Assembly (NCBI GenBank): GCA_947313855.1
Contig: CAMZNS010000010.1
Coordinates: 12,769-76,768 of the forward strand
DNA from: an uncultured Deferribacteraceae bacterium
Lineage (GTDB): Bacteria > Chrysiogenota > Deferribacteres > CAMZNJ01
Length of the DNA: 64,000 bases
Direction: 5' to 3'
This document shows positions 27,199-55,727 of this stretch, one piece after another (position 1 is the first letter of the stretch; every line of letters starts with the position of its first letter). The position numbers and the translations under genes were made by a program. The notes beneath the pieces are model-generated. The model made no database searches, was not told where the DNA came from, and saw only the letters and a list, made by a program, of their open reading frames with translations.

Positions 27199-27624
27199 AT
27201 GAACCAAAACACAAGCAACACCAATAGCGTAGATGGTGCAAACGACGAAGGACAGGGGGCGAACCCCGCTGAAAACAACCTCCGCAAGGTCGAAGGGATG
27301 GCAGACTTTGACCCCGCTACACTCAAAAAAGCGAAAGTCGGACTGCACACACTTGGAGGCGGAGAACTAACCGCCGGATCCCTGGAAGACATGCTCGAAT
27401 TCCCCCTAGACTACACCTACAAGGTCATCGGTATCAATACCCCCGAATTCGTACCAGCAGTGGAAACTTTCTTTGCCGAGGCTTCCCCAAAAATACACCA
27501 AAAAGAATCATCGTCAGGGAAATACGTATCACTAAGCATCACAGTGCACCTAACAGATTACGCCACACTCAAAAAATACTACGACGGAGTGGCAACACTA
27601 AAAGGATTCAAATATTGCATGTAA
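27199..27624 (+). CDS. YbeD/UPF0250 (DUF493) family protein with a low-complexity N-terminal extension
   Basis: C-terminal 85 aa LEFPLDYTYKVIGINTPEFV...GKYVSLSITVHLTD aligns with E. coli YbeD (LEFPTPFTYKVMG...GNYHSVSITINA). Start ATG 27199 with an ACGAGG RBS. Confidence 0.65.
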   Translation: MNQNTSNTNSVDGANDEGQGANPAENNLRKVEGMADFDPATLKKAKVGLHTLGGGELTAGSLEDMLEFPLDYTYKVIGINTPEFVPAVETFFAEASPKIHQKESSSGKYVSLSITVHLTDYATLKKYYDGVATLKGFKYCM

Positions 27625-27763
27625 TAAATATTAAAATATGATACAATTAAGAAGTTATACTTTTCTAACGAATAAAACATGAAGAATTGCCTTTAAACAA
27701 AAGACATATTAAAATGTCCAAACCTACAAACACAACTACACAAGTAGCTAACGGAGCAAAACT

Positions 27764-38366: not shown

Positions 38367-38404
38367 GCCCCCATTTTAACGGATTTGCTGGATTAAATCA
38401 ATAA

Positions 38405-38490
38405 AGTTTATGGGTAGCGTTGCGGTAGCGGTAGCGTTGCGGTTGTACAACTGTGCACAATTGTGCACGATTGTGCACGATTGTGCAGAA
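38405..38490. repeat. Intergenic tandem repeats (agcgttgcggt units; ttgtgcacgattgtgcacgattgtgca)
   Basis: Direct reading between ubiA-like and the following membrane protein. Confidence 0.85.
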
Positions 38491-38559
38491 GGCATAAATA
38501 TTGCTAGTTTACTTGGGAAACTATCAGTACGTCTTATTAAGGTTCCCTTTGGGAGAAGC

Positions 38560-39822: not shown

Positions 39823-39833
39823 CCTGCCTAGCG

Positions 39834-40406
39834 TTAGGGTAGCTGTAGCGAATCCAAAATTCCACTTTGCAGGGGTAGCATTACGTTGCTGTCGCAATCT
39901 TGTATATGGTCGAAGCCTAGCAGGTGCAGTGTGCCATGAATGAGAAGGAACGCAACCTCCTTGGTAACGCTATGACCGAGGGTAATACTCTGTCTGAGTG
40001 CTACAGGTGTGCATATGATGATGTCGCCTAGGGGGATGGTGGTGTTGCTGGTGTTGACGGTGTTGCTGGTGTTGCTGGTGTTGCTGGCGTTGACGGTGGA
40101 CTGAATAAGTTGGTGAATGGTGGTAACCTCCTGTGCGTCAAACAGGGGGAACGTTAGAACGTCGGTGGGTTTGTTTACCTGCCGATGGGTATTGTTGATG
40201 TCTTGCATCTGGACTTCGTCCACCATGGTGAGGTGGATGGTGAACGTTGCTGTTGCGTTGTTGTCAGCCATGCCCATTTTCTCTACAACGGTTGCGTTGT
40301 TGACAGTACTGGTTGCCGCTCGGAGTAGTGTGGCGTTGATGTTCGCATCGCTGATATTTGCATCGCTGTTAGCGTGTGGGTTTACGATTAGTGTTACTTT
40401 GTGCAT
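39834..40406 (-). CDS. ybeY: Endoribonuclease YbeY (16S rRNA 3'-end maturation)
   Basis: Zn-binding motif HGTLHLLGFDH. In-frame NTSNTSNTVNTSNTT repeat (40039-40097) inserted in the core. Overlaps the phoH 3' end. Confidence 0.8.
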   Translation of the reverse strand: MHKVTLIVNPHANSDANISDANINATLLRAATSTVNNATVVEKMGMADNNATATFTIHLTMVDEVQMQDINNTHRQVNKPTDVLTFPLFDAQEVTTIHQLIQSTVNASNTSNTSNTVNTSNTTIPLGDIIICTPVALRQSITLGHSVTKEVAFLLIHGTLHLLGFDHIQDCDSNVMLPLQSGILDSLQLP

Positions 40407-41340
40407 GTTCGTTTTCATGTTTGTCGTATGCCTCCACAATGTCTTGTATTAGGCGGTGTCTGACTACATCTTCGTTGGTGAATTGTGTGAAGTGTACCCC
40501 TTCAATTTTGTTTAGTATTTCGGTGGCATTTCGTAGTCCATTTGTTTGGTGTTTTGGTAGATCGGCTTGTGTTAGGTCGCCAGTGATGACCATTTTGGAT
40601 CCTTGTCCGAGTCTTGTGAGGAACATTTTCATCTGTGCGACGGTGGTGTTTTGTGCTTCGTCGAGTACGATAAAGCTGTTGTTCAGCGTACGTCCACGCA
40701 TGAATGCTAGTGGTGCGATTTCGATTGTTTGTGTTTCGAGTAGTTTGTTGAGCTGGTTTGTGTTGAGCAGTGTGTGTAGTGCGTCGTACATGGGTTGCAG
40801 GTATGGTGTAATTTTCTCTTCGATGTCACCCGGTAGGAAGCCGAGTGCTTCTCCTGCTTCCACGGCGGGTCGGGTGAGGATTAGTCGTTCCACGTCTTTG
40901 TTGAGTAGGTGGTGTAGTCCGGCGGCGATTGCGAGGAATGTTTTCCCTGTTCCGGCTGTACCGATGGCAAAGTTGAGGTCGTGTGTTTTCATTGCGTGGA
41001 AGTATTTGGATTGGTTTGCATTTTTGAGTCGTAAATCTTTGGCACGTCCTCCGATGTGCACAATATTCCCTACGGTTTGTGCAATATTTCCGGGTTGTTG
41101 TCGTAGAGCGAGGTTTAGTGCGTTTGCGACGTCTTCTTGTACGAGTTCACGTTTGGCGGCGATGATGGCCATGGATTCGAGTATCTCTTTTGCGATTGCA
41201 CTGTTGTTTCCGGTGATACGAAACAGTCCGCCAATATTGTTGATGTTGACACCGAGGTGTGTTTTGAATAGTTTGAGGTTGGAGTTGTTGACACCCACTA
41301 GTGCTGGGACAACGCTTTCGTTTACTTGAATTTCTGTCAT
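40369..41340 (-). CDS. phoH: PhoH-like ATPase (YbeZ)
   Basis: Walker A AIGTAGTGKTFLAIA, Walker B IVLDEAQN, PhoH C-terminal region. Classic phoH-ybeY adjacency. Confidence 0.85.
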   Translation of the reverse strand: MTEIQVNESVVPALVGVNNSNLKLFKTHLGVNINNIGGLFRITGNNSAIAKEILESMAIIAAKRELVQEDVANALNLALRQQPGNIAQTVGNIVHIGGRAKDLRLKNANQSKYFHAMKTHDLNFAIGTAGTGKTFLAIAAGLHHLLNKDVERLILTRPAVEAGEALGFLPGDIEEKITPYLQPMYDALHTLLNTNQLNKLLETQTIEIAPLAFMRGRTLNNSFIVLDEAQNTTVAQMKMFLTRLGQGSKMVITGDLTQADLPKHQTNGLRNATEILNKIEGVHFTQFTNEDVVRHRLIQDIVEAYDKHENEHAQSNTNRKPTR

Positions 41341-42440
41341 ATTGTTTCCCCTTGGGCGAGTTTTTCGAGGTATCGTTTGATGTGTTTTTGAGTTGCGTGT
41401 GGTTTCCCTTGTAGTGCGAGTGCTACGATGTTGTGTTGTTGAGTTGTTTGTGCGTGTTGCGTTAGTGTGTGCACCCTTAGTGCGTACCGTTTGTTGGCTG
41501 TATTTGTTGTGTTGTCGAATTGCTCATCACCATGGCGTATCTCTGAGGCGAGGTTTGTTTGTGCGGTTTGGGTGTTGAACATTATGCTGAAGATATCTAT
41601 TCCTAGGGTGTGTGCGAGGGTGATTATCTGTGGCAATGAGTTTTCGTCCATGAGTTTTGCCATTTCGTAGGGGGTACGGTTGGCATTGAGGTTTGCTAGT
41701 GTGATTTTGGCGTTGTGGATTAGTGTTACTGTGTGGTGTGTGGGTGTGAGGTTGTAGCGTGCGGCGAACCTGAGGCAACGGAGTATGCGTGATGGGTCGT
41801 CTGTGAAGCTTTGGTCGTGGAGTACGGCTATGGTCTTGTTGCGGATGGCGTCCAAGCCGTTAAACGGGTCGAGGAGGTGTTCGGCGAGGTGTTCGGTTAT
41901 GTGTTCGGCGAGGTGTTCGGCGGTTATCTGCGTGCCCGTTGCGATGAGTGTGTCTAGTGTTTGCGTTGGGATGTTGAGTGCCATGGCGTTGATATTGAAG
42001 TCGCGTCGTGGCAGGTCGTGTTCGATGGTGGGCATGATGGTGATTTGTGGTTGTCCCCCTGATGTGAGGAAGGTTTCTGTTCGTGGCGTGGTGATATCGA
42101 TTTTGCGGGTGTTGTTGCCGTCGTTGTAGGATATGCTAGCTGTGCGGTATTTCTTGTATTGGCGAACGGTGGCATTGGGCATAATTTTGCCGTACTCTTC
42201 ACTTAAAACGCATGCGTCCATTTCGGTAATAATATCCACGTCGTGGCTGTTGTTGCCCATGATGATATCTCGCACTGTTCCGCCAACAAGCCATACGCCA
42301 CGATTGTCACGATTGTCACGATTGTCACGATTGTCACGATTGTCACGATTGGTGGAGCTTGTTTTTTGGACGATATTTTGTAGTAGGCGTATTGTTTTTA
42401 GGGTGGCAGTGCTGAAGTTTGGGTTATTGTGTGGGTTCAT
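41337..42440 (-). CDS. tRNA nucleotidyltransferase / poly(A) polymerase family protein (Pol-beta NTase head domain)
   Basis: GGTVRDIIMG...DVDI head motif. 367 aa without an HD domain. In-frame NRDNRDNRDNRDNRDNR insertion (42299-42352) immediately N-terminal to the catalytic glycine motif. Confidence 0.7.
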   Translation of the reverse strand: MNPHNNPNFSTATLKTIRLLQNIVQKTSSTNRDNRDNRDNRDNRDNRGVWLVGGTVRDIIMGNNSHDVDIITEMDACVLSEEYGKIMPNATVRQYKKYRTASISYNDGNNTRKIDITTPRTETFLTSGGQPQITIMPTIEHDLPRRDFNINAMALNIPTQTLDTLIATGTQITAEHLAEHITEHLAEHLLDPFNGLDAIRNKTIAVLHDQSFTDDPSRILRCLRFAARYNLTPTHHTVTLIHNAKITLANLNANRTPYEMAKLMDENSLPQIITLAHTLGIDIFSIMFNTQTAQTNLASEIRHGDEQFDNTTNTANKRYALRVHTLTQHAQTTQQHNIVALALQGKPHATQKHIKRYLEKLAQGETI

Positions 42441-42546
42441 GTTGCGTGGGGGCTCCTGCGTATGTGGCTTTGTGTTTGTCGATGCTACATTGTAGCGAGT
42501 TTCAACTATTTACTCAACAGGCAACATTAGGTGTTGGGCGGTATGG

Positions 42547-43638
42547 TTATTGGTGTTTTCGGTATCGAGGGTGGAACTGCTCTAGTGTGTTGCGTTTGCG
42601 ATCGTCAGTAATGTGGGTGTATATTTGTGTTGTGGATAGGGAGGTGTGCCCCAAAAATATTTGGATAGTGCGTAGGTCGGCACCGCCAAAGAGCATATTG
42701 GTGGCGAATGAGTGTCGCAGGGTGTGTGGCGATGGTTTTTTGGTGAGCCCAGCTAGGCGTGCGTATTTGCGAACAATGTACCAGCATCCTTGACGAGTCA
42801 TCTGTTTCCCACTCCTGTCAACAAAAATAAAACCTTCATCGCGGATATTTTTGTTTTTTGGGGAGGACATGAAAACATGGCGACGCTCTAGTAAGGTTGG
42901 GTAGTCGTTTAAAAGTGAAAGGTACAAGGGGGCGTATCGTGTTTTGCCGCCTTTACCCACAACAACTGCCACACCGCGTTCTAAATCGATACTAGTAACC
43001 TTGAGGTTAATGACTTCGCTAACACGCATGCCAGAGGAGTATAAGGTCTGGATGATAACACTGTCCCGCTGACCTAAGTAGTTGTTGGTTTTGATTACGC
43101 CCAGGAGGGTGTCAACTTCGGTTTGGGTGAGGAAGGAGGGGAGCTTGTTGACGCTTCGCGGTTTGATGGTGCTTAATAAGGGGTTTACGGGGAGGTGTTG
43201 CTCTTGAACCAAGTAGTCGAAAAAACAGGAAAGACCGCTCAACTTACGCTGAATGGTTCTGTTGCCCATGGCATTGGTACGCATGTAAACAAGGAGTTGG
43301 GTGACGCCAGATCTGTCTAAGGAGCTCGCGAGGTTGTTTAAGTTGATGAGCATGTTGTTGACGTTGAATATGTCCGCACCATCAGCACCATCAGCACCAT
43401 CAGCACCATCCGTCGCCACAGGGGGGGATGCAGGCTTGTAGTACACAGTGCTAGAGTTGCCACCGTGACCATCAAGGTCGTAACTTGAAAGGAATTTCAG
43501 GAGCGTAATAACGTCATTGCTGTAGGAGATTAAGGTGTTCGCCGAGTAGCCCAACTCAAACTTGAGGTAGTCCTGAAGAAAAGACTCAAGGAGCTTAGAC
43601 ACAGACAACGCCTCAATATTAGTTCTATGCCTGTGCAT
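42547..43638 (-). CDS. xerD: Tyrosine recombinase XerD-like
   Basis: C-terminal HTLRHSFATNMLFGGADLRTIQIFLGHTSLSTTQIYTH (R-H-R-Y tetrad context) and N-terminal SAM-like domain. In-frame DGADGADGADGAD insertion (43377-43412). Confidence 0.8.
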   Translation of the reverse strand: MHRHRTNIEALSVSKLLESFLQDYLKFELGYSANTLISYSNDVITLLKFLSSYDLDGHGGNSSTVYYKPASPPVATDGADGADGADGADIFNVNNMLINLNNLASSLDRSGVTQLLVYMRTNAMGNRTIQRKLSGLSCFFDYLVQEQHLPVNPLLSTIKPRSVNKLPSFLTQTEVDTLLGVIKTNNYLGQRDSVIIQTLYSSGMRVSEVINLKVTSIDLERGVAVVVGKGGKTRYAPLYLSLLNDYPTLLERRHVFMSSPKNKNIRDEGFIFVDRSGKQMTRQGCWYIVRKYARLAGLTKKPSPHTLRHSFATNMLFGGADLRTIQIFLGHTSLSTTQIYTHITDDRKRNTLEQFHPRYRKHQ

Positions 43639-44602
43639 GCTGCTGCTGTTGATGATTACGACGCAAACGACGCCTTGAAACACTCTTCACTTTCTCAGGC
43701 TTGGCAACAACAACAGGGGCGACCAGCTCGCGGGATCGACGACCGTAATGATTGATACAACGCTCAGATGGAGCAAATATTATGTAAATGAAGCTTGCCA
43801 AAAATATTGCCGAAACAAGACTAGCAGCAACGGTAAGGAAGAAGCTGGTAATGCCAGCAGTATGGAGAACATCCAATGTCACCAAAGACAGAGTAACGAC
43901 AACCAACTTAAACGTAGTGCCACGACGTAAACCGATATCGTTGACGCGGTTTTTGAGCAGGCACACAAAGCTGTAGGTGTAGACGAGGAGCAGAACGCAA
44001 GCGTAAGCGATGGCAACAATACTCATGGTACTAAGGTTGCTGAGATTAATACTAATATCAAGGGGAACAACACCAAGGTAAACCAGACCAACCAAAGGGA
44101 GACTCAGTATGGCAACCATCAGGAGGAGGAGTACATTGTATTGAACAAACATAAAGCGATGAACACGAGACCTAAACGTAAACACTGAATGGAAAAAGCT
44201 TTTTAAGGGGGCATTTATGCGAAACGGAGGGGTGCCGTAACGGTTGATATATTTTTGTCCAGGGATAAGGGATATGAGTATGGTGATTGCTATGCCGACG
44301 CCAGCAAAGTTTAAAATCACCTTGAGAATGGCCATTTTGGAGGGTATGCCAATATCTTTAAGACGCTTGGTTGTAAGGATGAAGTCGCTAACGGCACCGA
44401 TGGAGACTAGTAGTATGAGCATAAGGGTTCCCAAGGCGGGATAGAGGTGTGACGACGATAAGTAGAATACGCCGGAAGCAAGGAGCAACATGAGGTATGC
44501 AGTAATGTAGAGACGACCGTTGATGCGTCCTGATGATGCAAAAAATAGTCGAAAAAGGTTATCGCGACGAATTAGTGTTTTGGTTTGGTGATTGATAGAC
44601 AT
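43625..44602 (-). CDS. DUF805-family inner-membrane protein with an extended C-terminal membrane domain
   Basis: N-terminal GRINGRLYITAYLMLLL and NRYGTPP, signatures of DUF805 (YhaH-like). 325 aa, multiple TM. Confidence 0.55.
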   Translation of the reverse strand: MSINHQTKTLIRRDNLFRLFFASSGRINGRLYITAYLMLLLASGVFYLSSSHLYPALGTLMLILLVSIGAVSDFILTTKRLKDIGIPSKMAILKVILNFAGVGIAITILISLIPGQKYINRYGTPPFRINAPLKSFFHSVFTFRSRVHRFMFVQYNVLLLLMVAILSLPLVGLVYLGVVPLDISINLSNLSTMSIVAIAYACVLLLVYTYSFVCLLKNRVNDIGLRRGTTFKLVVVTLSLVTLDVLHTAGITSFFLTVAASLVSAIFLASFIYIIFAPSERCINHYGRRSRELVAPVVVAKPEKVKSVSRRRLRRNHQQQQHAQA

Positions 44603-44613
44603 AGGTATTCTCC

Positions 44614-45915
44614 CTATTCTGAATCTGAATAAGAATCGTTGTTTTCATGCTGTGTGTCGCTCTTCTTAAACTCAACTCGTCCGATACGTGTGCCAGTCAT
44701 GGTTTTGACCGTAACGGAGTAACCTTGGTAGTACATTTTTTGACCAGCAGTGGGGATGTCGCCGGCGATGTCAAATACCAAGCCCCCAACAGTATCGTAG
44801 CTTTTGTCGTTCTCCACCATGTGAACCCCTAGCACTTCAAAGAAGTCTTCCAAGTTCATCCTTGAGTCTACAATATAAGTATCACTGCCAATTTTAATAT
44901 AGTCAATATCTTTTTCGTCGTATTCGTCGTAAATTTCGCCAACAATCTCTTCGAGGATATCCTCCATGGTAACAATCCCCGACAGTCCGCCGTATTCATC
45001 GACTACAAGGGCGATGTGGCGACTTTTCGATCGCATATCAGCAAGGAGGCTGCTAATTGTTTTGGTTTCGGGTACGTGTAGTGCAACGTGTAGTGTGCTT
45101 TTGTCTTTAAGGGAGGACTCAATATTTTGCAGTATGCTTTCAGTATTGGATTTTACCAAATCCTTAACGTAAAAGATGCCAGAAATCTCGTCGATATTGC
45201 CACTGTGGACGGGGTAACGTGAAAACTGATGTTCTTCGATTGTATCTAAGTTGGACTCTGGTGGGGCGGAAGAGTTCAGAAAAACAATTTCGGTGCGGGG
45301 AACCATAATCTCTTTGACCATGGCGGTCTGCATGTCAAAAATACTAGACAGCATGGCGTGTGTTTCCTCTTCAATTGCCCCTTCGCCGAGGGAGGCATCA
45401 ACAATAAACTCAAGCTCATCGGAGGTAATGGTAGGGTTGCTGCCACCGTTGCTTTTCTCACCCCAAGAGCTTAGCCAAGAGGAGATGAAGCTTAGAAGCA
45501 GGCTGAGGGGGTAGACCAAGGTATTGATAATGTAGATGGGGTAGATGAACGCAAGGGTGACAACCATGGGGTTGCGTTTGGCAAATGTTTTGGGGATTAT
45601 CTCGCCAAACATGAGGATGAGGAGGGTCATCACACCTGTGGCGGCGGCAATGGCATTGTGTTCAAACAGCGTGAGTGCCATGCCTGTGGCAAGGGCAGAG
45701 GAGAAGATGTTAACAAGGTTGTTGCCGATTAAAATGGTGGCAAGGGTCATTTCAGGGCGATTGAGCCACATGCGTAGCGGTTTAGCGAAAAACGGGTGAT
45801 CGTCAATGGCCTTGCGGGTGCGGAGCTCATTGAGGGAGGTGAGTGCGGTTTCGCTACTGGAAAAGAAGCCGGATAGTACTAGGGATATGGATATCAAAAC
45901 TATTTCTAGGTACAA
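44614..45915 (-). CDS. CNNM/HlyC-CorC family transporter (DUF21 TM domain, CBS pair, CorC_HlyC)
   Basis: N-terminal 4-TM DUF21, tandem CBS domains, C-terminal [19 protein letters not shown]...RIGRV transporter-associated domain. Confidence 0.8.
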
Positions 45916-45949
45916 AATATACTCTCCTTGAGGGTCGGGGGGGTACTCG

Positions 45950-46200
45950 CAGTAGTATTGTTGGTACTGGTGTTAGCATGGGCATTAGCATGGTCGTTAG
46001 CAGGGCTGCACAAAATGCACGGGGGCACTGTCATTGCTATTGCTGTTGGGCAAAGGGAAGCTGTGACGAGGGGGGTGGGTGTCTGTGATGCACACGGTTC
46101 TGGAGGTTGGGAGTCTTGCGGGGCACACGGTTCTGGAGGTTGGGAGTCTTGCGGGGCAAGTAGGTCGTCCCCTGTTATTGTCTGGGGGGTGGTTGTATTG
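45950..46200. repeat. Intergenic repeat block including a 33-bp unit x2 (cacggttctggaggttgggagtcttgcggggca) and shorter G-rich repeats
   Basis: Direct reading. Confidence 0.85.
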
Positions 46201-46339
46201 CGTTGAGTGTTGGTGGCTGTACTAATACTATCTCTCCTTGATGTTGGAAACTGCTATCCCTTTGATTATATATTGTCTTGCTGTAAATGTCTACAAAAAC
46301 AGGTGTATAAAAAATAATTACGGGCAAAAAGCTCGAAGA

Positions 46340-47578
46340 CTACTGTGGAACAGCCTTAAGACGTAGGGTGATATCGGTGATGATGGCGTCCTTGCTGGTG
46401 AAGTATTGGAGTAGTTCGGGGATGGTGTTCTGGATGCGTGCAAGGTTTTGCGACCAAGACTGTATGGCAAGGTTTACCTTTTGTGGATTACTGAGATCCA
46501 TGGCTTCGTTGTAAATGAGGTTAGCTGATGATCGGCTGAAGTATAGTTTGTAGAGGAGGGTCTGCACATCTTGGGCGTTTGTTGCAAGGAATTTTGCTGT
46601 TTCGGTGCCATAGGTTTGTGCGAGGTTTGTTTCGGTGATATTGCCGTTCATGTATTCGATGAGGGCGCTAGCGGGTATGGAGTTCGTGTTCATTGTGGTC
46701 ATGGTTTCGGTGGAGATTTTCTGCAGTAGGGTGGAGGAGTCGTAGGTGTTGATACGCAGTTGTCCAGCAATATTGACGAGTTCGTTGTAGGATATTTCGC
46801 CACGCATAAACCTGTAGGCGAGGGCTTCGTTGTCGCGATACAAACGCTCCTCAGGGGTATCGCCTGATTTTATGGAGGTTGCGATAGGTTTGTTGTTGAA
46901 GACTAGTCTGTTGTCGTAAACCTGAAGGTTGGCTTTGACACGTAGATCGGTGAAATCGAAAAGGATGTCGGGTATGCCGTCGTGATTGTAGTCTAGAACA
47001 TTTTGCGGGGAGTCTATGTTAGTGAGGGATACGGAGATATTTTCAGCGTACTGACCCCAGTTAAGAATAACATAGTCAACGATAACAAGGGTGTTGCCTG
47101 AGGGTTTAACTAGGAGCAGGTAGTTGTTGTAGGAGTTGTTGTCGGAGTTGTTGTCCCTGCCATAAACCACAACGCCGTTGTCCACTAGCCCCATGAATCC
47201 AATATTTAAGTTAATCTCATTCTCCGTGTAAAAGTTTGGACGAAGGGTTCCGCTACGTGGTGGCACTATCCCCCATAGGGAGTAGGAGCGGTTCTGGTAT
47301 CGGAAGATGTCGGAGCTGTTGGACTTTGCACCATAGCTTGAAGCACCAACAATGGATATGGCACCCCCATCGGAGCTGTTGCGTGGGGGAGTTGGTGGCG
47401 AGGTTGATGTGCCCCTTGAATTCAATGAGTAGCGATCTATATTGTAAGTATCACCATCAGACTGAGCAACAATAGTAGCAGTAGCAGTAGCAGTAACGAT
47501 GGCGATGGCGATGAAGGGTAACGCCAAAAACATGGTGACGAGGAGCAATAAGTATGGGGTATGGGTAGGTGGTGGCAT
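46340..47578 (-). CDS. Hypothetical secreted protein with an EF-hand/dockerin-like Ca-binding loop
   Basis: Signal peptide (LLLLVTMFLALPFIAIAIVTATATA). DYNHDGIPDILFD (DxNxDGxxD) loop. In-frame SSS/DGD trinucleotide-pair repeats at 47474-47512. No family recognised. Confidence 0.5.
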   Translation of the reverse strand: MPPPTHTPYLLLLVTMFLALPFIAIAIVTATATATIVAQSDGDTYNIDRYSLNSRGTSTSPPTPPRNSSDGGAISIVGASSYGAKSNSSDIFRYQNRSYSLWGIVPPRSGTLRPNFYTENEINLNIGFMGLVDNGVVVYGRDNNSDNNSYNNYLLLVKPSGNTLVIVDYVILNWGQYAENISVSLTNIDSPQNVLDYNHDGIPDILFDFTDLRVKANLQVYDNRLVFNNKPIATSIKSGDTPEERLYRDNEALAYRFMRGEISYNELVNIAGQLRINTYDSSTLLQKISTETMTTMNTNSIPASALIEYMNGNITETNLAQTYGTETAKFLATNAQDVQTLLYKLYFSRSSANLIYNEAMDLSNPQKVNLAIQSWSQNLARIQNTIPELLQYFTSKDAIITDITLRLKAVPQ

Positions 47579-47960
47579 GCGAGTAAAGTCTCCATTTATG
47601 CAAGTATGCAAGTATGCACGGCAAGGGGGCGGAAATAGGGGATTAACGTGACGCAATTAGCCTGTACATGGTTATACAACTACTCAACCAAAGGTCAGGG
47701 AACGCCAAAGTAGTTATTCAGTTATTTTTACGCTCAAAAAATGAGCAGCTTACGCCCGATGATCTTAAAACTAAAACCGATGGTATCACAGTACCCTTGA
47801 AGTTGAAATGCAAGCAAGCATAAGGCGTTTGAGGCTCCCATGTTATTTTGAAATGAACACAATGATAGCAGTTTATTTTGGATTTCATAGGTCATAATAA
47901 TAAGAAAAAGAGGATTTTGCAATAAAAAAATGTTTACAATTTGTTTAAAATATATTAAAT

Positions 47961-47980
47961 AGTTGTAATAGAGTTGCAAC
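47961..47980 (+). promoter_or_regulatory. Putative operator: tandem 8-mers agttgtaa / agttgcaa 11 bp apart; the second lies within the palindrome gttgcaac, immediately upstream of the XRE gene RBS
   Basis: agttgtaatagagttgcaac. gttgcaac is a perfect 8-bp palindrome ending 9 nt before ATG 47990. Confidence 0.35.
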
Positions 47981-47989
47981 GGAGTAATT

Positions 47990-48787
47990 ATGCGAAATGA
48001 TGTGAAAACTAGGCAACGAGGGAATATTGCACAGTATCAGTCCGTGGCAAATGTGCTGAAAGTTCGAATGATTACCATCGGTATGAAACAAAATGAACTG
48101 TCAGAACGACTAGGAATAAGCCAGTCAAGGGTCTCAAACTACCTCAACGGGAAGAGCGAACCCGACTTCCACACACTCTCCAAGATGGCCGAATACCTCG
48201 GTATCAGCCTCAACGACCTTGTCCGAAACGCCGAAACTCTCCTAGGTGACGAAAACCTCAGAACCACCGCAGGAAGCTACGACACAGAACCCAAAGACTT
48301 GAACGATAGGGACGAACAAAATGATCTGAACCACCCACACGAAGCCTACATGCCCTTTATTGTTGCCAAAAAATTACGCATAAGAGACTCCGTAACTAAC
48401 GCCAAAAACCTTGTCAGCCTACCACCGCAAGTCGCCAAGATGGTCAATGTGTCCCCTGATGCACTGAATAAAAACGGCGACGAACAGATGATTATACTCG
48501 AAATTACAGAAAAAATATACTCATCCAAAATTGTCGTAAATATTGGCGACGTTGTCTTTGCCGTACCATATTCAGCAGGGATGGATGTGGGAGACGATGC
48601 TTTGCTGGTCAAACCGGGGAAAAACTTTAGCGTGCTGAAACTCTCGCGAACACTAAGCATTAACGGCGAACACACCTACACAGCACTGCAAGAGCACTGC
48701 AACCAAGGTGAGGGTGTTGGGGCAAGCCTGGATACGATCGACCTTTCCGGCTACCACCTTGTCACAGCTGTTTTGCAGGTTATGTAG
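47990..48787 (+). CDS. XRE-family helix-turn-helix transcriptional regulator with an about 180-aa C-terminal domain of unknown function
   Basis: HTH_XRE: MKQNELSERLGISQSRVSNYLNGKSEPDFHTLSKMAEYLGISLNDLV. Confidence 0.7.
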   Translation: MRNDVKTRQRGNIAQYQSVANVLKVRMITIGMKQNELSERLGISQSRVSNYLNGKSEPDFHTLSKMAEYLGISLNDLVRNAETLLGDENLRTTAGSYDTEPKDLNDRDEQNDLNHPHEAYMPFIVAKKLRIRDSVTNAKNLVSLPPQVAKMVNVSPDALNKNGDEQMIILEITEKIYSSKIVVNIGDVVFAVPYSAGMDVGDDALLVKPGKNFSVLKLSRTLSINGEHTYTALQEHCNQGEGVGASLDTIDLSGYHLVTAVLQVM

Positions 48788-48825
48788 CTCGAAAAGGCAC
48801 ACGATATTCCGCTCGTGCGTTATGG

Positions 48826-49320
48826 GTGTTGCCGGGTGTTATGGGGGGGCTATGCCCGTCCACGCCCACGTACAACCGTCCACGCCCACGCACAACCGTC
48901 CACGCCCACGCCCACTCACAACCGTCCACGCCCACGCACAACCGTCCACGACCACGCACAACCGTCCACGCCCACGCACAACCGTCCACGACCACGCCCA
49001 CGTACAACCTCGTACAACCGTCCACGCCCACGCACAACCGTCCACGCCCACGCACAACCGTTCACGCCCACGCACAACCGTCCACGACCACGCACAACCG
49101 TCCACGACCACGCACAACCGTCCACGCCCACGCACAACCGCCCACGCCCACACACAACCCCCCACCCCCACACACACCCCCCCACCCCCCCACCCACCCC
49201 CCCCCCCGCCCACCCGCCCCCCCCCCCCCACACCCGACCCCGCCCACGCACAACCGTCCACGACCACGCACAACCGTCCACGACCACGCACTCATCTTTC
49301 CCCACAATCCCGACTTCGTT
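48826..49320. repeat. About 500-bp array of a 21-bp tandem repeat (ccacgcccacgcacaaccgtc x about 20, with a/c variants), decaying into poly-C tracts (runs of 11 and 13 C)
   Basis: Direct reading. All six frames are open through it (ORF-track ORFs of 150-218 aa here are repeat artefacts). Minus strand carries G-runs. Confidence 0.9.
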
Positions 49321-49602
49321 TGTTACAAAATGTAAACTTTTCTTATAATTCACTGATATTTTGAGTTTTGTTCGAGGTGTGTATTGTGGTGAGTTTTGTT
49401 TGTAATGGCGTACATTTTTTTGAGTGCGATGACTTCCCCTCGCGTCAGGGCTTTCGACACGATTAACATTTGCCTGCAAACAGGCTTCGCTCCCGCCATT
49501 GCGTTAAAAGTAGTTCGGTTACTTAGGGATTATTTTTTGTTACTGCAACCCCTTCTATTATTGAGTATACAGTATAATTTGAAAATAATTTCAAGATTAG
49601 TC

Positions 49603-49631
49603 TTGACAAGGGGTCAACGTTTGGCTATACT
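49603..49631 (+). promoter_or_regulatory. Consensus sigma70 promoter TTGACA-17-TATACT driving the tRNA pair
   Basis: ttgaca 49603-49608, 17-bp spacer, tatact 49626-49631. The tRNA starts at 49645. Confidence 0.7.
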
Positions 49632-49644
49632 TGCAGAACGTTAT

Positions 49645-49718
49645 CGCGGGGTAGAGCAGCTTGGTAGCTCGTTGGGCTCATAACCCAGAGGTCGTTGGTT
49701 CAAATCCAGCCCCCGCAA
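49645..49718 (+). tRNA. tRNA-fMet (initiator, anticodon CAT)
   Basis: Cloverleaf read by hand: acceptor CGCGGGG/CCCCGCA with a C1-A72 mismatch typical of bacterial initiator tRNA. Anticodon loop CTCATAA. T-arm GGTTCAAATCC. No encoded CCA. Confidence 0.8.
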
Positions 49719-49744
49719 TGTCTTTTTTCACAGTTTAACTTATG

Positions 49745-49818
49745 TGGCGGATTAGCTCAGGTGGTTAGAGCATACGGCTCATATCCGTAGGGTCCGGGGT
49801 TCAAGTCCCTGATCCGCC
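49745..49818 (+). tRNA. tRNA with CAT anticodon (elongator Met or lysidine-modified Ile2)
   Basis: GGCGGAT...ATCCGCC acceptor, D-arm TAGCTCAGGTGGTTAGAGC, anticodon loop CTCATAT, T-arm GGTTCAAGTCC. Confidence 0.75.
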
Positions 49819-49920
49819 ATTATCCCCTCACTTTCGTCGCCGTATTCGGCACAATCTTTCACCGTTCACCCCTCACCCCTCACTTTTTTAATGTAGTAAC
49901 AAGCGTTCGGCGTACTGTGT

Positions 49921-50200
49921 CCTGCGTGGATGTTTCTACGTGGATGCTCGGCGTACGGCTCGGCGTACACTACACGTAATCAGATGTGTGTGCGGGGGGG
50001 AAGGGGTATGGCATGGTATGGTTGCCCCTACTACCTCTGCTACCCCTGTCCCCCCCTGCCACAATACTCGTACTCCGATGAATTCGAGACGTGTGTACGG
50101 CTCGGCGTACTGCTCGGCGTATCGTGCCCCGCGTACCGTGCCCCGCGTACCGTGACCCGCGTACTGCTCGGCGTACACTGCCCCGCGTACTGTCGTCAGT
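49921..50200. repeat. Intergenic repeat block (ctcggcgta / ccccgcgtaccgtg units)
   Basis: cggctcggcgtac... and cgtgccccgcgtaccgtgccccgcgtaccgtgacccgcgtactgctcggcgtacactgccccgcgtac. Confidence 0.85.
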
Positions 50201-50204
50201 AGCC

Positions 50205-51314
50205 CTAGTTGAAGTCCACGCTAACAAACGGCTCACCAATGGACTCAGCAAGCTGTTTGTGCACAATTTTGCCGTTGTACACATTTAGTCCGTTTTTGAG
50301 GTGTGTATTTTCGGCGAGTGCTTTCGAGATGCCTTTGTTGGCGAGTTCTACGATAAAGGGTATTGTGGCGTTGTTTAGTGCTATGGTGGATGTTTTGGCA
50401 ACGCCGCCCGGCATGTTGGCAACGCAGTAGTGGATTATGCCGTCCACTTCGAACACAGGGTTGTCGTAGCTTGTTGGCTTGGAGGTTTCAAAGCAGCCAC
50501 CCTGATCGATGGATACGTCCACGAGTACGGAGCCTTTTTTCATGGTTTTGAGCATCTCTTTGGTAACAAGTTTTGTAGCTTTGGCACCGGGGATGAGTGC
50601 TGCTCCAACAACGATGTCGGCTTCGGCCACACTTTTTGCGATTGCGTCTTTGGAGGAGTACAGGGTGGTGATTTTGTTGCCGTAAAGTGCGTCTAGTTGT
50701 CTGAGGCTGTTCATGTTTCTGTCAAGGGCGACAACTTTTGCACCGATACCGATGGCTGTTGCGATGGCGTTGCTTCCAACCACACCGGCACCGATAACGC
50801 AAACGTTACCTTGGGCTACACCCGGAACGCCGTTGAGTAGTACACCGGAGCCGTTGTTGCTTTTGAGTAGGAATTGGCATCCGCTGAGTATTGAGAGTCG
50901 TCCAGCGACTTCGCTCATGGGTGCGAGTAGTGGTAGTCGTCCGTTGTTGTCGGTTACGGTTTCGTAAGCGATGGCAGTGGATTTGGATTCTTTGAGTAGT
51001 TTTGTTTGTTCGGGTAGTGCTGCTAGGTGTAGGTAGGTGAAGATTGTGTGTGATTTGGTGAGCAGTAGGCATTCGTCGAGTGTTGGTTCTTTGACTTTGA
51101 CGAGTAGTTCTGATTTTTGGAAGAGTTCTTCCACAGTGTCAACGATGGTTGCACCAACATTTTTATAATCGTTGTCGGAAAATCCGATTGCTTCGCCGAG
51201 TCCTTTTTGTATAAAAACGGTATGTCCGTGCTGTACTAGTTCGATAACGCTGGAGGGGATGAGGCTAGCACGATATTCGTGTACTTTAGTTTCTTTTATT
51301 GCTCCAATTTTCAT
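50205..51314 (-). CDS. ald: Alanine dehydrogenase
   Basis: N-terminal MKIGAIKETKVHEYRASLIPSSV. Rossmann GAGVVGSNA. 369 aa, AlaDH/PNT family. Confidence 0.85.
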   Translation of the reverse strand: MKIGAIKETKVHEYRASLIPSSVIELVQHGHTVFIQKGLGEAIGFSDNDYKNVGATIVDTVEELFQKSELLVKVKEPTLDECLLLTKSHTIFTYLHLAALPEQTKLLKESKSTAIAYETVTDNNGRLPLLAPMSEVAGRLSILSGCQFLLKSNNGSGVLLNGVPGVAQGNVCVIGAGVVGSNAIATAIGIGAKVVALDRNMNSLRQLDALYGNKITTLYSSKDAIAKSVAEADIVVGAALIPGAKATKLVTKEMLKTMKKGSVLVDVSIDQGGCFETSKPTSYDNPVFEVDGIIHYCVANMPGGVAKTSTIALNNATIPFIVELANKGISKALAENTHLKNGLNVYNGKIVHKQLAESIGEPFVSVDFN

Positions 51315-51594: not shown

Positions 51595-52422
51595 ATGATG
51601 AAAGTTACAACTATGGGTATGATGCTAACCTTTATACTTGCCCTAAGCGGAATCGCAGTTGCTGCCCCCGGCGACGTTGTCGTCTACAACAAAACTAGTG
51701 GCACAACCGTTGTCCTTGATAGCGAAGCGGACTCTGTACCCGGTGGTGTAAGTGGGTTCAGCTTCCAAAATACAGTTATTCTTGGTGCAGAGTTCAGCGA
51801 CCGTCCATACAAAAGCTTCTCGCCAGGAAGAAGTGGCGATAGTGCCTCCTATGTCGGTTCCTACTACTCCAACCTCGTGGACACCAGCATATTCCGTGCC
51901 AAACTAGGGTCGTCGGTGGAATTTAACCGACGAAACGCAGCTACACTCTACTTCGTATACCAAGGCACAGTCCTCAATGACGCATACGGAATACTTACCG
52001 ACGGCGAACTTGCCTCTCTAGACGACTCGTGGCCGTACTACAAAATCGCCGGATACCTAAACGGTGCCGGTGCCGAATTCGAATACGGCTTCAGAATATT
52101 CCCAGCACTAAGCATAAACCCGTTTATCGGTGGCTACATCTCAAGGGGAATGGTCTGTGCAGAGGACGACTACAGCGACAAATACCTTGCCGCAACAACT
52201 ACAGCACCCGAACGCTTTCGTGAATGCTACAACGTTAAGGCAAGCAACTACGATCTAGGCTCACGCCTTGTTCTACACACAAGGTTCAACGTCGAACCGT
52301 ACGTCGGCTTCGCCTACTCGCAGGCAAACATGAGAGGGAAACCGTACGAAGCTGTGGGCTACACCGTGGGGATACAAACACGCTTTGCAAGCTCGTTCAC
52401 ATCATTTGTCGTAGCAGAATAG
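51595..52422 (+). CDS. Secreted beta-rich paralogue P1 (array of five)
   Basis: Signal peptide ending LSGIAVAAPGD. Family motif EPYVGFAYSQANM...KPYE. Cys-x24-Cys pair. Confidence 0.6.
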   Translation: MMKVTTMGMMLTFILALSGIAVAAPGDVVVYNKTSGTTVVLDSEADSVPGGVSGFSFQNTVILGAEFSDRPYKSFSPGRSGDSASYVGSYYSNLVDTSIFRAKLGSSVEFNRRNAATLYFVYQGTVLNDAYGILTDGELASLDDSWPYYKIAGYLNGAGAEFEYGFRIFPALSINPFIGGYISRGMVCAEDDYSDKYLAATTTAPERFRECYNVKASNYDLGSRLVLHTRFNVEPYVGFAYSQANMRGKPYEAVGYTVGIQTRFASSFTSFVVAE

Positions 52423-52474: not shown

Positions 52475-53221
52475 ATGAGGACGATTATACTATTTGGAAG
52501 CATGCTTGTATTAACACTGAGTGGGGTTGCCTATGGGGCACCAGGTGTTACTGTCATACCCAACCCTGATGAGCCTGTCAACCTTCAACCACTTGATAGA
52601 GCCGACAGCATGGCCATTGCCGACAATGAAGTTTCCAACAGGAAACCTATTGTGATAGACTTTAGCCTAGGAACATCAACCTACTCGGCCATAAAGAAGA
52701 ATAATCCCGTTTACGATACAGGGACGTCTTCCAATAGTATTATCAGAATAAATATAGGCTCCTACAAAAAAGTTGGTGGCAATGGAGGTGTTTTCGAATA
52801 CTTCTTTGGCTACCAAGGCTTAGAATTAGGGGATGGAGTATTTATTATCTCCAAAGATGAACTCGCCGCCTCAAACTACACAACAACAGTGAGCACCATG
52901 GATGGGCTCGGTGTAGGTGCTGCCTACTTTGTCAGGGTTGTGCCCAATGTGGGCATAGGATCGCGGGTTCAAGCTTACTCCTCGGGGGTTACGACCTGTG
53001 TAGGGGCGGACTCATACCGACCTGAACTCTACGACCAGAACTGCCGTAATTTCAAAGGGTACAACGCCGATGTGGATCTAACTGTAAAATACTATGGCAA
53101 AAGTGGGCTCAGTGCCTACCTTAGTCTACTGCAGTCCTACGCAAACATAAGGGACAGAAGCTTTACAGGAACAGGAGCTGTGCTAGGAATCGCCTACAGC
53201 TTCAGACCTATTTTTCAGTAA
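52475..53221 (+). CDS. Secreted beta-rich paralogue P2
   Basis: Signal peptide LSGVAYGAPG. Cys-x15-Cys. Gly/aromatic-rich. Confidence 0.6.
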   Translation: MRTIILFGSMLVLTLSGVAYGAPGVTVIPNPDEPVNLQPLDRADSMAIADNEVSNRKPIVIDFSLGTSTYSAIKKNNPVYDTGTSSNSIIRINIGSYKKVGGNGGVFEYFFGYQGLELGDGVFIISKDELAASNYTTTVSTMDGLGVGAAYFVRVVPNVGIGSRVQAYSSGVTTCVGADSYRPELYDQNCRNFKGYNADVDLTVKYYGKSGLSAYLSLLQSYANIRDRSFTGTGAVLGIAYSFRPIFQ

Positions 53222-53296: not shown

Positions 53297-53992
53297 ATGA
53301 GACATATAATACTAACTGCCATGGTTGCAGTTTTAACCGTATCAGGAGTGGCGATGGCTGCACCGGGCGACGATCAAAACAGCAAAGGTGCCTTCGTTGT
53401 TCTTGGCTTTGGAGCAGGAGCAACATACTACACTACCCTAGACGACAACCTCTTCGACCTAGGATTAATACCCAGTGTTTACAGCAAATTCGGGCTCGGT
53501 TACAAGTTTAACGAAAAAAATCAGTTTAGCGTTTACATGACTCCCACATACGCCCTTCTAGACGGAGCAGGCTTCTTCACCTCCCAAGGGTATGTTTTGG
53601 CGGACAAACCAAAATCTAACGAGAGCTTTACCACTGCTGGCGGAGTAATGTCAGGGGGGGGCTTGAGTGCTGACTATGTCTTCAAACCATCCCCATCTTA
53701 CGGATTTGGACCCTATGTTAGCGGCAAAAGGTACACAGCCTTAACCTGCGACAACTTCTACAAAGAGAACTCCAAAAACATGACCTGCGACTACTCTAAG
53801 GCTAGCAGTTTTGAAACCGGCTTGTCGGCTAACTACTATTTCAGCAATGGCTTCAACCCATTCATTACCCTAGGGTACACACAGCTGAACTTCGATTCGC
53901 ATCCTTACCAGGGTGCCAATGTGGTTGTCGGTCTCAACTACATCTTTACCCCCGCTCGCGACTCCAAAACAGCCGCACTAATCCTATTTTAG
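53297..53992 (+). CDS. Secreted beta-rich paralogue P3
   Basis: Signal peptide VSGVAMAAPGD. NPFITLGYTQLNFDSHPYQG motif. Cys-x12-Cys. Terminal Phe. Confidence 0.6.
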   Translation: MRHIILTAMVAVLTVSGVAMAAPGDDQNSKGAFVVLGFGAGATYYTTLDDNLFDLGLIPSVYSKFGLGYKFNEKNQFSVYMTPTYALLDGAGFFTSQGYVLADKPKSNESFTTAGGVMSGGGLSADYVFKPSPSYGFGPYVSGKRYTALTCDNFYKENSKNMTCDYSKASSFETGLSANYYFSNGFNPFITLGYTQLNFDSHPYQGANVVVGLNYIFTPARDSKTAALILF

Positions 53993-54080: not shown

Positions 54081-54209
54081 TCAGAAACAGGGGAGGGTGC
54101 CATGTGCCCCTCCCTTTTTTGCGTGTAAAGTACCCCCAACCACTTGAAAGCGTGTCGCCATGTGCCTATATTTTGTTTGGTAATATGCCACGACGGAGGG
54201 GGAATATTT

Positions 54210-54890
54210 ATGAATACTACAATCACACAAATAGGTATGTTGCTCTGTGCAATACTCCTTTTCAGCGTTGCGAGTGTTGCCACTTCGGCACCAGAGGATA
54301 CCGGCACAGCTAGTAATAAGGTTGCGGAAGACACAAATATCGCCCTTGGGTTCGGTGTCCACGCTGACCATGGGTTTTACACCAGCACCAACGATGAATT
54401 ATCCAGCCTAGGACTACTCAGCTCCCTTTACCTAACGGCGGGGTTGAGCAAAATTTACAAAGAGCAACATGAGCTGAGTGCCTACCTAGGCTACCAATTA
54501 ACAGCTCTAGAATCATACTACGGCGACAGTAGGGCTGATGCGAATCGCCCCGATGGTGCAACAGGGTATCTTAACGGTGTGGGCGTTGAAGGGTACTACA
54601 CCTTCCGACCATACAAATACCTAACAGCAGGAGGGTTCGCAACACTTTACGCCTCCACAGGGCAGGATTGTAGCGAAGAGAGTCGCACGTCATGCAGTGT
54701 CGCCAAAGCAAACAAAATCGACATAGGCTTGACACTAGGAACCAACATCGGCGAAAGCTTCAACCCCTACATGTATGTGGGCTACTCGCAAATGAACTTC
54801 CGACTCAAGCCGTACGAATCAACAAGGATGGGCATAGGCATCAAAGGACGTATCACAAATACACGTCTGTTTGGTGCTGACGCAGGATAG
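54210..54890 (+). CDS. Secreted beta-rich paralogue P4
   Basis: Start ATG 54210 (RBS GGAGGGGG). Signal peptide ...SVATSAPED. NPYMYVGYSQMNFRLKPYES motif. Cys-x7-Cys. Confidence 0.6.
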   Translation: MNTTITQIGMLLCAILLFSVASVATSAPEDTGTASNKVAEDTNIALGFGVHADHGFYTSTNDELSSLGLLSSLYLTAGLSKIYKEQHELSAYLGYQLTALESYYGDSRADANRPDGATGYLNGVGVEGYYTFRPYKYLTAGGFATLYASTGQDCSEESRTSCSVAKANKIDIGLTLGTNIGESFNPYMYVGYSQMNFRLKPYESTRMGIGIKGRITNTRLFGADAG

Positions 54891-54986: not shown

Positions 54987-55727
54987 ATGGCGAATAATGC
55001 GAGTACGATAAAGGTGGGTCGTAAATATATCGTTCTATCAGGGCTGGTCTTGCTAATATTAAGTACAGTTCTCTTTTCAACCATTGCGGTCGCAGCCCCC
55101 AACATTACTCCCCCTGCAGATAAAAGCGGTGCTGTTAGTGTTCCCTACGACGAAAACCCTACAACAGGTGCTGTTACGAGTCTTTCGTTTAGTGCCTCCT
55201 TAGAGGTTCCCGTGTTTGGTCGCTCTAACTATGCCGACGCCTATGGCTTATTTACTAGATACCCCGCCGTAGGCTTTACAGCTGGGTTCTCCACCCTTGT
55301 GAACCCCCATCACGAATTTCGATACAGTGTCGGTTTTAAGCGTGCTTTCCCCATAACCGTGATAGATAAAATTATTGAATACCCCCAACTCATGACTTTT
55401 ATGTCGTACAACAGTGTGGGGTTAGAGGGTAGTTACTACTATCGACCTGTACGTTGGTTTGGCATAGGACCTACTGCTAAAACTTATGTTGTGTTGGACA
55501 GAAAACCGAAGGGAATTGGTTTGCTCACAGGGACTAGGATCATGCAAGAAACAGAAGAGCTCTCCAATGCGATACCTATCGTTAGCGATATCGGTGGACA
55601 GGTACGGTACTACACCAAGGGTCGTCATTCGTTGTATGCGTCGTTCCTGCTTTCCAATTACTACAAGGGTAGCGATTCGTGGTTCTACACCCATGTTTAT
55701 TCAATAGGCGTAATTGTTGATTTGTAA
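54987..55727 (+). CDS. Secreted beta-rich paralogue P5 (most divergent, no Cys pair)
   Basis: Signal peptide TIAVAAPN. Similar size and Gly/Tyr-rich composition. Confidence 0.5.
   Translation: MANNASTIKVGRKYIVLSGLVLLILSTVLFSTIAVAAPNITPPADKSGAVSVPYDENPTTGAVTSLSFSASLEVPVFGRSNYADAYGLFTRYPAVGFTAGFSTLVNPHHEFRYSVGFKRAFPITVIDKIIEYPQLMTFMSYNSVGLEGSYYYRPVRWFGIGPTAKTYVVLDRKPKGIGLLTGTRIMQETEELSNAIPIVSDIGGQVRYYTKGRHSLYASFLLSNYYKGSDSWFYTHVYSIGVIVDL

Follow-up and report, generated by a model that had tools for sequence, protein, structure and literature searches.

A noncoding 20-bp minisatellite with a degenerate C-rich core behind an XRE regulator gene in a repeat-rich Deferribacterota lineage

The array, its gene neighborhood, and the organism

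The window, i.e., the whole stretch of 64,000 nucleotides of DNA that was analyzed, contains a long tandem array downstream of an open reading frame (ORF) with an HTH_3 domain, which therefore was considered to encode an XRE-type regulator (Table 1). The array starts 69 nt past the stop codon of this gene (48787) and is followed by a promoter-like site, by a near-consensus sigma-70 promoter that lies ∼310 nt 3' of the array end and 13 nt 5' of the first of two tRNA genes, and by a convergent gene for alanine dehydrogenase (ald). No intrinsic-terminator-like site was found from the XRE stop codon to the tRNA promoter. Inspection of the first tRNA(CAU) by eye revealed the hallmarks of an initiator tRNA, a C1:A72 mismatch and a GGG/CCC anticodon stem.

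The region 3' of the tRNA genes has features of its own. Further short repeats are found at positions 49866 to 50190, and a very stable hairpin is predicted at 49987 to 50063 (-47 and -48 kcal/mol, with z values of -3.6 and -4.7, on the two strands); sub-threshold matches to Rfam "miRNA" families merely reflect this hairpin. Partial inverted copies of the array unit and core (49924 to 49946 and 49985 to 50011) have 75 to 85% complementarity and are of borderline significance in this low-complexity DNA.

Table 1. Features at the array locus and whole-unit indels in neighboring arrays relative to contig L059
Feature	Coordinates	Strand	Remarks
Whole-unit indel vs L059	38447		3 x 10 nt
Whole-unit indel vs L059	40040		9 nt
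Whole-unit indel vs L059	40337		15 nt
Whole-unit indel vs L059	42299		2 x 9 nt
Whole-unit indel vs L059	43376		9 nt
Whole-unit indel vs L059	46090		33 nt
XRE-family regulator gene	47990-48787	+	265 aa; HTH_3 domain, E = 1.3e-16
Left flank, G-rich	48823-48849	+	TGGGTGTTGCCGGGTGTTATGGGGGGG; plus-strand G4 motif inside
Left block of array, regular	48856-49137	+	13 head-to-tail units: 11 x 20 nt, 1 x 26 nt, 1 x 36 nt
Core of array, degenerate and C-rich	49138-49253	+	∼116 nt; 78% C over the first 96 nt (49138-49233)
Right block of array	49254-49293	+	2 b-variant units; final unit diverges at its 3' end (CACTC)
Promoter-like site	49320-49349	+	TTGTTA-18-TATAAT, 10/12; directly 3' of array
Near-consensus sigma-70 promoter	49603-49631	+	TTGACA-17-TATACT, 11/12
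tRNA gene	49644-49719	+	anticodon CAU
tRNA gene	49745-49820	+	anticodon CAU
Alanine dehydrogenase gene (ald)	50205-51314		convergent

The alanine dehydrogenase encoded in the window was 96% identical to that of the uncultured Deferribacteraceae bacterium M_SnakePit_MAG_00002, and the XRE protein was 99% identical to one in assembly GCA_947313805.1, a contig of which (L059) had 96.9% nucleotide identity with positions 37948 to 48841 of the window. Both assemblies look like metagenome-assembled genomes (MAGs) obtained from midguts of Rimicaris exoculata, a vent shrimp; the name M_SnakePit_MAG_00002 conforms to the naming used for the MAGs of that shrimp, and in the case of GCA_947313805.1, we infer the shrimp-midgut origin from its neighboring accession series. 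The MAGs of Candidatus Rimicarispirillum, which are Deferribacteres of Rimicaris, have GC contents of 46.7 to 47.6% and an average nucleotide identity of 87 to 97.6% among one another (PMC9636832), and both the GC content of the window and its average nucleotide identity agree with the Rimicaris Deferribacteres MAGs. Judging from these similarities, we assign the window to a Deferribacterota gut symbiont of Rimicaris shrimp of the Candidatus Rimicarispirillum type.

Tandem Repeats Finder (TRF) placed the array at 48856 to 49291, with a period of 20, 21.9 copies, 85% matches, and a score of 496 to 527, and parsing into individual units gave an extent of 48856 to 49293. The consensus, CCGTCCACGCCCACGCACAA, consists of (CCACGC)x2 followed by ACAACCGT, so that the unit is itself built on a duplicated hexamer. 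Two variants of the unit alternate, one (a) with C and the other (b) with A at position 10. The consensus had 19 matches with no more than three mismatches, compared to 0.01 expected from shuffles, and all 19 were at the focal locus. Head-to-tail repetition of a unit of 10 to 100 bp beyond chance, as is characteristic of a bacterial VNTR or minisatellite, was thus found, and none of the other tandem arrays in the window, which has ∼40 in all, is as large as this one. The units abut head to tail without the spacers of a CRISPR array, and that reading was dropped.

The left block is regular apart from a 26-nt unit, which contains one additional CCACGC-type hexamer, and a 36-nt unit, which contains an internal duplication of 16 nt. 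In the core, identity to the consensus in a 20-nt register was 18, 15, 13, 10, and 13 of 20 positions and then 15 of 16. Pure poly-C already scores 11 of 20 against the consensus, and thus the register is supported at the edges of the core only. Most of the substitutions in the core (23 of 31) were to C, and the core includes two runs of C7, one of C11 (49197 to 49207), and one of C13 (49217 to 49229). Apart from C11 and C13, no run of C or G in the window exceeds 8 nt. The G-rich left flank is complementary to the first array unit, giving a predicted local hairpin, and is 74% complementary to positions 49220 to 49246 of the core.

The original prediction, which was made from the DNA letters, placed the array between the XRE gene and the tRNA promoter, as confirmed here, and described about 20 copies of a 21-mer at 48826 to 49140. 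The repeat is real and far beyond chance, but its period is 20, the 21st base of the prediction already being the one with which the following unit begins. The repeat starts at 48856 rather than 48826, with positions 48826 to 48855 being G-rich flank without the repeat, and there are 13 regular units up to 49137; a count of about 20 is reached only if the core and the right block are included. The CCACGACCACG variant units, the pure C runs of 11 and 13 nt, and the two additional units after the core were all present as described.

The unit appears to be specific to this locus. The 20-mer had no exact match in 185,579 species genomes, and a degenerate scan of JGI metagenomes recovered seven contigs, each with a single copy and none with an array. 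These seven were judged to be chance matches.

Coding status, homopolymeric tracts, and G-quadruplex potential

ORFs of 150 to 218 amino acids run across the array. However, the array starts only after the XRE stop codon, a period of 20 is not divisible by 3, and one variant of the unit has an extra 16 nt, and a coding tandem repeat specifying a repeat protein was rejected on the basis of the period of 20 and this variant. None of the five ORFs had a Pfam match above the cut-off, and an Rfam search of the region with gathering and E-value thresholds recovered the two tRNAs only, with no family for the array. Given a period not divisible by 3 and the lack of Pfam matches above the cut-off, the ORFs across the array are spurious, in agreement with the original prediction, and the array is noncoding. 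The accompanying claim that all six frames are open was correct for the three frames of the plus strand and one of the minus strand, but the other two minus-strand frames have one stop codon each, at 48918 and 49064. Four frames are open because stop codons are simply missing, and the ORFs of 150 to 218 amino acids should stay out of annotation.

Homopolymeric tracts are the basis of contingency loci in Neisseria, Haemophilus, and Campylobacter, at Bordetella fim, and in Treponema tpr promoters. In such loci, the tract either is part of an ORF or lies between or beside the hexamers of the promoter that drives the regulated gene. The C11 and C13 tracts exceed the length at which slippage is expected (about 8 nt or more), but they are in no credible ORF and are neither in nor next to a -35/-10 region. 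They are 410 to 440 nt past the XRE stop codon and 374 to 406 nt 5' of the -35 hexamer of the tRNA promoter, and the closest promoter-like site (49320 to 49349) is 91 nt away. Therefore, changes in tract length cannot alter a reading frame or the spacing of -35 and -10 hexamers. As no tract lies in an ORF or promoter spacer, the array lacks the anatomy of a phase switch, contrary to the original prediction, and the C tracts should not be taken for a contingency locus. The suggestion that length changes modulate read-through into the tRNA genes fared no better; the tRNA genes have their own near-consensus promoter, and thus read-through from the XRE gene would add little.

The potential of the minus strand to form G-quadruplexes (G4s), which had been attributed to the array as a whole, was evaluated with a criterion of four or more G runs, each 3 nt or longer and separated by short loops, together with a G4Hunter score of at least ∼1.5. 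The core (49137 to 49253; ∼117 nt) had a G4Hunter score of -2.42 and three canonical G3+N1-7 motifs on the minus strand, which makes it the strongest candidate in the window for a G4 on the minus strand and an i-motif on the plus strand. However, the regular 20-mers had a mean score of -0.83, which in magnitude is under the usual threshold of 1.2 to 1.5. Predicted G4 potential is thus restricted to the ∼117-nt core.

Tandem arrays across the window and in related strains

The abundance of tandem repeats was not limited to the focal locus. TRF recovered 41 merged arrays in the window, corresponding to 0.64 arrays per kb and 5.2% of the bases, compared to 0.043 arrays per kb and 0.17% of the bases at identical settings in 48 control loci (493 kb) around ald genes of other bacteria. 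Array density in the window was thus ∼15 times that of the control loci, and the related contigs (L001 to L003, L059, and L060) were likewise array-rich. Nearly all arrays within genes (17 of 18) had periods divisible by 3, and intergenic arrays had periods of any length.

The coding density of the window is ∼87%, and the intergenic arrays were unevenly distributed among the spacers. In a census that counted 39834 to 40439 as a gene, arrays (83 to 436 nt) were present in each of the six convergent spacers that are 35 nt or longer, versus two of the eight divergent, promoter-bearing spacers (arrays of 35 to 41 nt). In codirectional spacers, arrays usually began no more than ∼35 nt after the upstream stop codon. 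Five of the six arrays in spacers between plus-strand genes were G-rich in the sense direction. Intrinsic-terminator-like sites numbered 24, 30, and 19, compared to 19.7, 21.1, and 20.6 expected in shuffles; over 60 kb, the 73 sites found versus ∼61 expected indicate that such sites are not more common than in shuffles. Among the units of 23 intergenic arrays, CG-containing k-mers (e.g., GCACA and ACGGT) were enriched 3- to 7-fold. A shared motif is not claimed, as this enrichment was marginal after correction for multiple testing and was confounded by the higher GC content of the arrays.

Comparison with related strains suggested that the arrays are unstable. There were 15 indels in the 11 kb over which L059 aligned with the window, and at least 6 of the 15 were whole-unit changes inside arrays (Table 1). 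A Logan contig with 99.9% identity (L002) had one difference of a 14-nt unit, at 54050. In a species with 86% identity, the same spacers carried other arrays, with a 222-nt insertion at 54920 and the loss of 178 nt of the array at 55742. An XRE orthologue with 69% identity was followed, directly 3' of its stop codon, by a CA-rich 10-nt repeat with ∼5 copies of GCGAACACTT. Arrays of the symbiont lineage thus undergo fast expansion, contraction, and replacement. Whole-unit changes of this type provide VNTR markers that can be used directly to follow symbiont strains across hosts and vents.

All three short-read contigs that reached the focal array ended at or before unit 3. L059 ended 45 nt after the XRE stop codon, and a Logan contig with 100% identity (L001) ended in unit 3, matching the first 46 nt of the array exactly; the sequence beyond 48901, including the C tracts, comes from the present assembly alone. 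The breaks of short-read assemblies at the focal array help to explain why MAGs of the symbiont are fragmented. Because neighboring arrays differed by whole units between strains, it is plausible by analogy that the focal array also changes in length by slippage.

Neither the richness in tandem repeats nor the bias of arrays toward gene 3' ends is mentioned in the description of the Rimicaris Deferribacteres (PMC9636832), in which "repeat" is used in the context of CRISPR only, and none of the papers searched combined Rimicaris, Deferribacter, and "tandem repeat." The genome-wide repeat pattern is a more interesting lead than the focal array itself.

Possible consequences of the array and comparison with known systems

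In the direction of XRE transcription, the RNA of the array is 58% C and 12% G. Every 78-nt segment across positions 48848 to 49362 had a C/G ratio of at least 3 (median, 3.8; maximum, 32), versus a 99th percentile of 3.9 for the window as a whole, and the YC density of this region was 0.31, compared to 0.10 for the window. The minimum free energy predicted for the array RNA was -83 kcal/mol for 543 nt, with a z value of +2.3, which is worse than shuffles. In RhoTermPredict, Rho utilization (rut) sites are recognized as segments of at least 78 nt that have a C/G ratio above 1 and regularly spaced C residues and are rich in YC (PMC6407284). By its composition and predicted fold, the array has both the composition of rut sites and the unstructured, ribosome-free RNA on which Rho loads. 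The array would thus provide the XRE transcript with a C-rich, G-poor, unstructured, and untranslated tail of ∼515 nt that would be an ideal Rho-loading (rut-like) substrate. Because these rut properties are combined with the lack of an intrinsic terminator, the most likely consequence would be passive, Rho-dependent termination of XRE transcripts within or just after the array, rather than tunable read-through. Most arrays in spacers between plus-strand genes are G-rich in the sense direction, which indicates that C-richness is not a shared design, and the rut-like effect of the focal array is therefore probably incidental. The idea that the arrays are rut-like in general was dropped for the same reason.

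The explanation that we consider probable, with appreciable room for doubt, is that the array is a noncoding 20-bp minisatellite (VNTR) that turns over by slippage or recombination and that has putative passive Rho loading as a consequence. Such arrays would originate, and vary in length, via replication slippage or unequal recombination, and they would persist where they are harmless, namely, in spacers behind the 3' ends of genes, presumably in the absence of selection for any function. At the focal locus, the C tracts would then be what is left of central units that decayed, for the most part through substitutions to C. Rho would terminate read-through from the XRE gene inside the array or shortly past it, and transcription of the tRNA genes would start at the strong promoter in front of them.

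The strict enrichment of arrays in spacers that follow the 3' ends of genes is also compatible with selection for a function at these ends. It is conceivable that the arrays are kept as terminators or insulators in a genome poor in intrinsic terminators, by Rho loading on C-rich RNA, by a G4 roadblock on the template strand, or by both, with copy number tuning the efficiency. The presence of arrays in every convergent spacer of at least 35 nt but few divergent ones, the short distance at which they usually follow stop codons, intrinsic-terminator-like sites without an excess over shuffles, and the extremely rut-like focal array, which lacks a hairpin-plus-U terminator, are all consistent with this possibility, as is the repeat of differing, CA-rich sequence at the same position in the relative with 69% identity. 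However, the arrays are heterogeneous in sequence, period, and strand composition, and the five G-rich ones between plus-strand genes are not rut-like. Furthermore, arrays turn over between close relatives, and purifying selection against arrays in promoter regions predicts the same positional bias. Selection for a 3'-end function is thus considered unlikely, though not negligible. The broader proposal that the arrays are genome-wide, fast-evolving 3'-end modules that replace hairpin-plus-U terminators for termination or insulation seems rather improbable. If that proposal were true, the modules would act through Rho loading, a template-strand G4, or another roadblock, with a strength set by the number of units, and the focal array would act as an insulator between the XRE regulator gene and the initiator-tRNA operon.

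Other explanations appear to be more doubtful. A slipped-strand phase-variable element, with or without a G4, in which tract or array length switches or tunes read-through into the tRNA genes, would agree with the presence of the longest C or G runs of the window, which are long enough to slip, with the very high G4 propensity of the core, and with the variation of nearby arrays in copy number between strains. Yet the tracts are outside ORFs and promoter spacers, at least 410 nt past the XRE stop and 374 nt or more from the -35 hexamer of the tRNA promoter; the tRNA genes carry a promoter of their own with 11 of 12 consensus positions; the regular units are below G4 thresholds; and homopolymer lengths are error-prone in long-read assemblies, with the tract lengths here coming from one assembly. 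We thus regard this element as very unlikely. We give equally little credence to the possibility that the C-rich core, the copy number, or both are errors of long-read assembly or base calling. Independent sequence ends at 48901, and the short-read assemblies (Logan contig L001 and NCBI MAG contig L059) all break at this locus, but the first 46 nt of the array were exact in a short-read contig, and most changes in the core are substitutions that build up in a graded manner before a clean return of perfect units, rather than the indel noise typical of homopolymer errors. The unit spans about two helical turns, a length like that of iterons, and it is adjoined by a gene for a helix-turn-helix regulator, with two inverted copies of the TCCACG sub-motif beyond the tRNA genes (49924 to 49946), as might be expected if the 20-bp units bound the XRE regulator or a replication or partition protein. 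Such an iteron- or operator-like array seems exceedingly unlikely, however, considering that the unit is not palindromic, that its sub-motifs (TCCACG and others) are no more than ∼2-fold enriched elsewhere in the window, that genes for replication or partition are absent from the vicinity and the cumulative GC skew continues without a turn across the region, that the inverted match is borderline in low-complexity DNA, and that the sequence downstream of XRE orthologues is not conserved. Sites linked to, and conserved with, a binding protein, as expected for iterons or operators, were not found for the focal array.

The focal array is a noncoding bacterial VNTR that has a degenerate core with C tracts and belongs to a newly recognized repeat-rich lineage, and the value of this finding is mainly practical. 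Several known systems share individual properties with it. Its C tracts of 11 and 13 nt have the length at which slipped-strand mispairing is frequent in contingency loci, but they are in neither an ORF nor a promoter hexamer region. The core, with three canonical minus-strand G3+N1-7 motifs and a G4Hunter score of 2.4 in magnitude, is reminiscent of the G4 at Neisseria pilE; however, no recombination or antigenic-variation system is associated with it, and the degenerate core alone qualifies, by prediction only. The transcript of the array resembles rut sites in offering at least 78 nt of YC-rich, unstructured, ribosome-free RNA with more C than G after a stop codon (PMC6407284), the C/G ratio of the array region being 3.5 to 31 over 515 nt, whereas rut sites in nature lack tandem repetition and typically span 70 to 100 nt, and the array is rut-like by composition and predicted fold. 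The MIRU elements of mycobacteria and the TAACTGA repeats of Beggiatoaceae (PMC4679880) are also short direct repeats concentrated in intergenic spacers, but each of those is a single family dispersed over many loci, whereas in the window the units of different spacers are unrelated to one another and the focal unit is confined to a single locus.

The closest precedent for a reduced genome with intergenic tandem repeats that we considered is Ehrlichia ruminantium (2005 PNAS; Frutos et al. 2006 J Bacteriol; PMC10710844). E. ruminantium is likewise reported to be host associated, with a small genome and many different arrays in noncoding spacers, and its expansion and contraction are aimed at the arrays, with strains differing by whole units. 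The lineage studied here differs in being a Deferribacterota and an extracellular symbiont of the shrimp gut, with a coding density of ∼87% and unrelated units, and its 3'-end bias was measured in a single 64-kb window. After E. ruminantium, the symbiont thus offers a second natural case in which to study why some reduced genomes breed intergenic repeats.

Tandem arrays across the window and between strains

In the window (1-64000), TRF detected 41 merged arrays, corresponding to 0.64 arrays per kb and 5.2% of bases. This density was ∼15-fold higher, and the share of bases in arrays 31-fold higher, than in control loci analyzed with the same settings (48 loci around the ald genes of other bacteria; 493 kb in total). 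Of the convergent spacers 35 nt or longer, all six contained arrays, compared with two of the eight divergent spacers. Arrays usually started a few nucleotides past a stop codon. Each spacer had a unit of its own, unrelated to the units of other spacers.

The window was compared with contigs from a strain that is 96.9% identical (L059; window positions 37948-48841), from a 99.9% identical short-read assembly (L002; 49900-55300), and from an 86%-identical species (L003; 50139-57382). Inter-strain indels clustered within tandem arrays, and many of them were changes in the copy number of whole units. Some of these fell inside genes: 9-nt units had changed in frame within a PolyA_pol-like gene (42299) and an integrase-like gene (43376). 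The same spacers carried different arrays in the 86%-identical species versus the window.

Throughout the window, the sense strands of genes consistently had more C than G and more A than T (for example, at 1-8000, 26000-28000, and 40000-47000). GC skew reached approximately -0.16 (sense direction) in plus-strand gene blocks and approximately -0.3 to -0.4 in minus-strand blocks, and its sign switched with gene orientation. Most of the arrays were likewise asymmetric, with one GT-rich and one CA-rich strand.

The focal array and the tRNA genes

For the G-rich flank directly before the focal array, the noncoding 20-bp repeat upstream of the tRNA genes, a local hairpin with the first array unit was predicted (48823-48867; z = -2.0 for folding energy versus shuffled sequence). 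In the predicted fold of the full-length sequence, this flank was paired with the C-rich core of the array at 49220-49246. It is tempting to speculate that a 3' hairpin once stood here and that the focal array grew from its descending arm.

The tRNA(CAU) gene at 49644-49719, read by eye, has a C1:A72 mismatch and an anticodon stem closed by three G-C pairs, which are hallmarks of initiator (fMet) tRNA. The second tRNA(CAU) may be an elongator Met or an Ile2 tRNA. Past the two genes lie weak inverted matches to the focal-array unit (17/20) and to the C-rich core (49924-49946 and 49985-50011), and the tRNA pair is therefore loosely bracketed by inverted low-complexity sequence. These matches were of borderline significance.

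Features beyond the tRNA genes; the five paralogous ORFs encode ∼230 to 275 aa with signal peptides
Feature	Coordinates	Description
Short-repeat cluster	49866-50190	Second such cluster; far side of tRNA genes from focal array
Very stable hairpin	49987-50063	Arms with G7/C7; between convergent tRNA operon and ald
ORF 1	51595-52422	
ORF 2	52475-53221	
ORF 3	53297-53992	
ORF 4	54144-54890	
ORF 5	54987-55727	

Hairpins, termination, and the ORF run

The short-repeat cluster contains TCACCCC (2.6 copies), copies of GCTCGGCGTAC, and a 14-nt GCGTACCGTGCCCC array (6 copies), and the short-read contigs L002 and L003 break there, as short-read contigs do at the focal array. The very stable hairpin (-47 and -48 kcal/mol, z = -3.6 and -4.7 for the two strands) lacks a U tract, and its Rfam matches to miRNA precursors were sub-threshold. 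It may act as a terminator in both directions or as a stem for processing. Terminator-like sites (a hairpin plus a T tract) were not enriched in window positions 1-60000 (73 found versus ∼61 expected from dinucleotide shuffles), and few were located at gene ends. These results suggest that termination is mostly factor dependent in this organism.

Among the paralogous ORFs, no Pfam family was detected in the three of five that were scanned, except for a faint PagL-like match. The run probably represents a lineage-specific family of outer-membrane beta-barrels.
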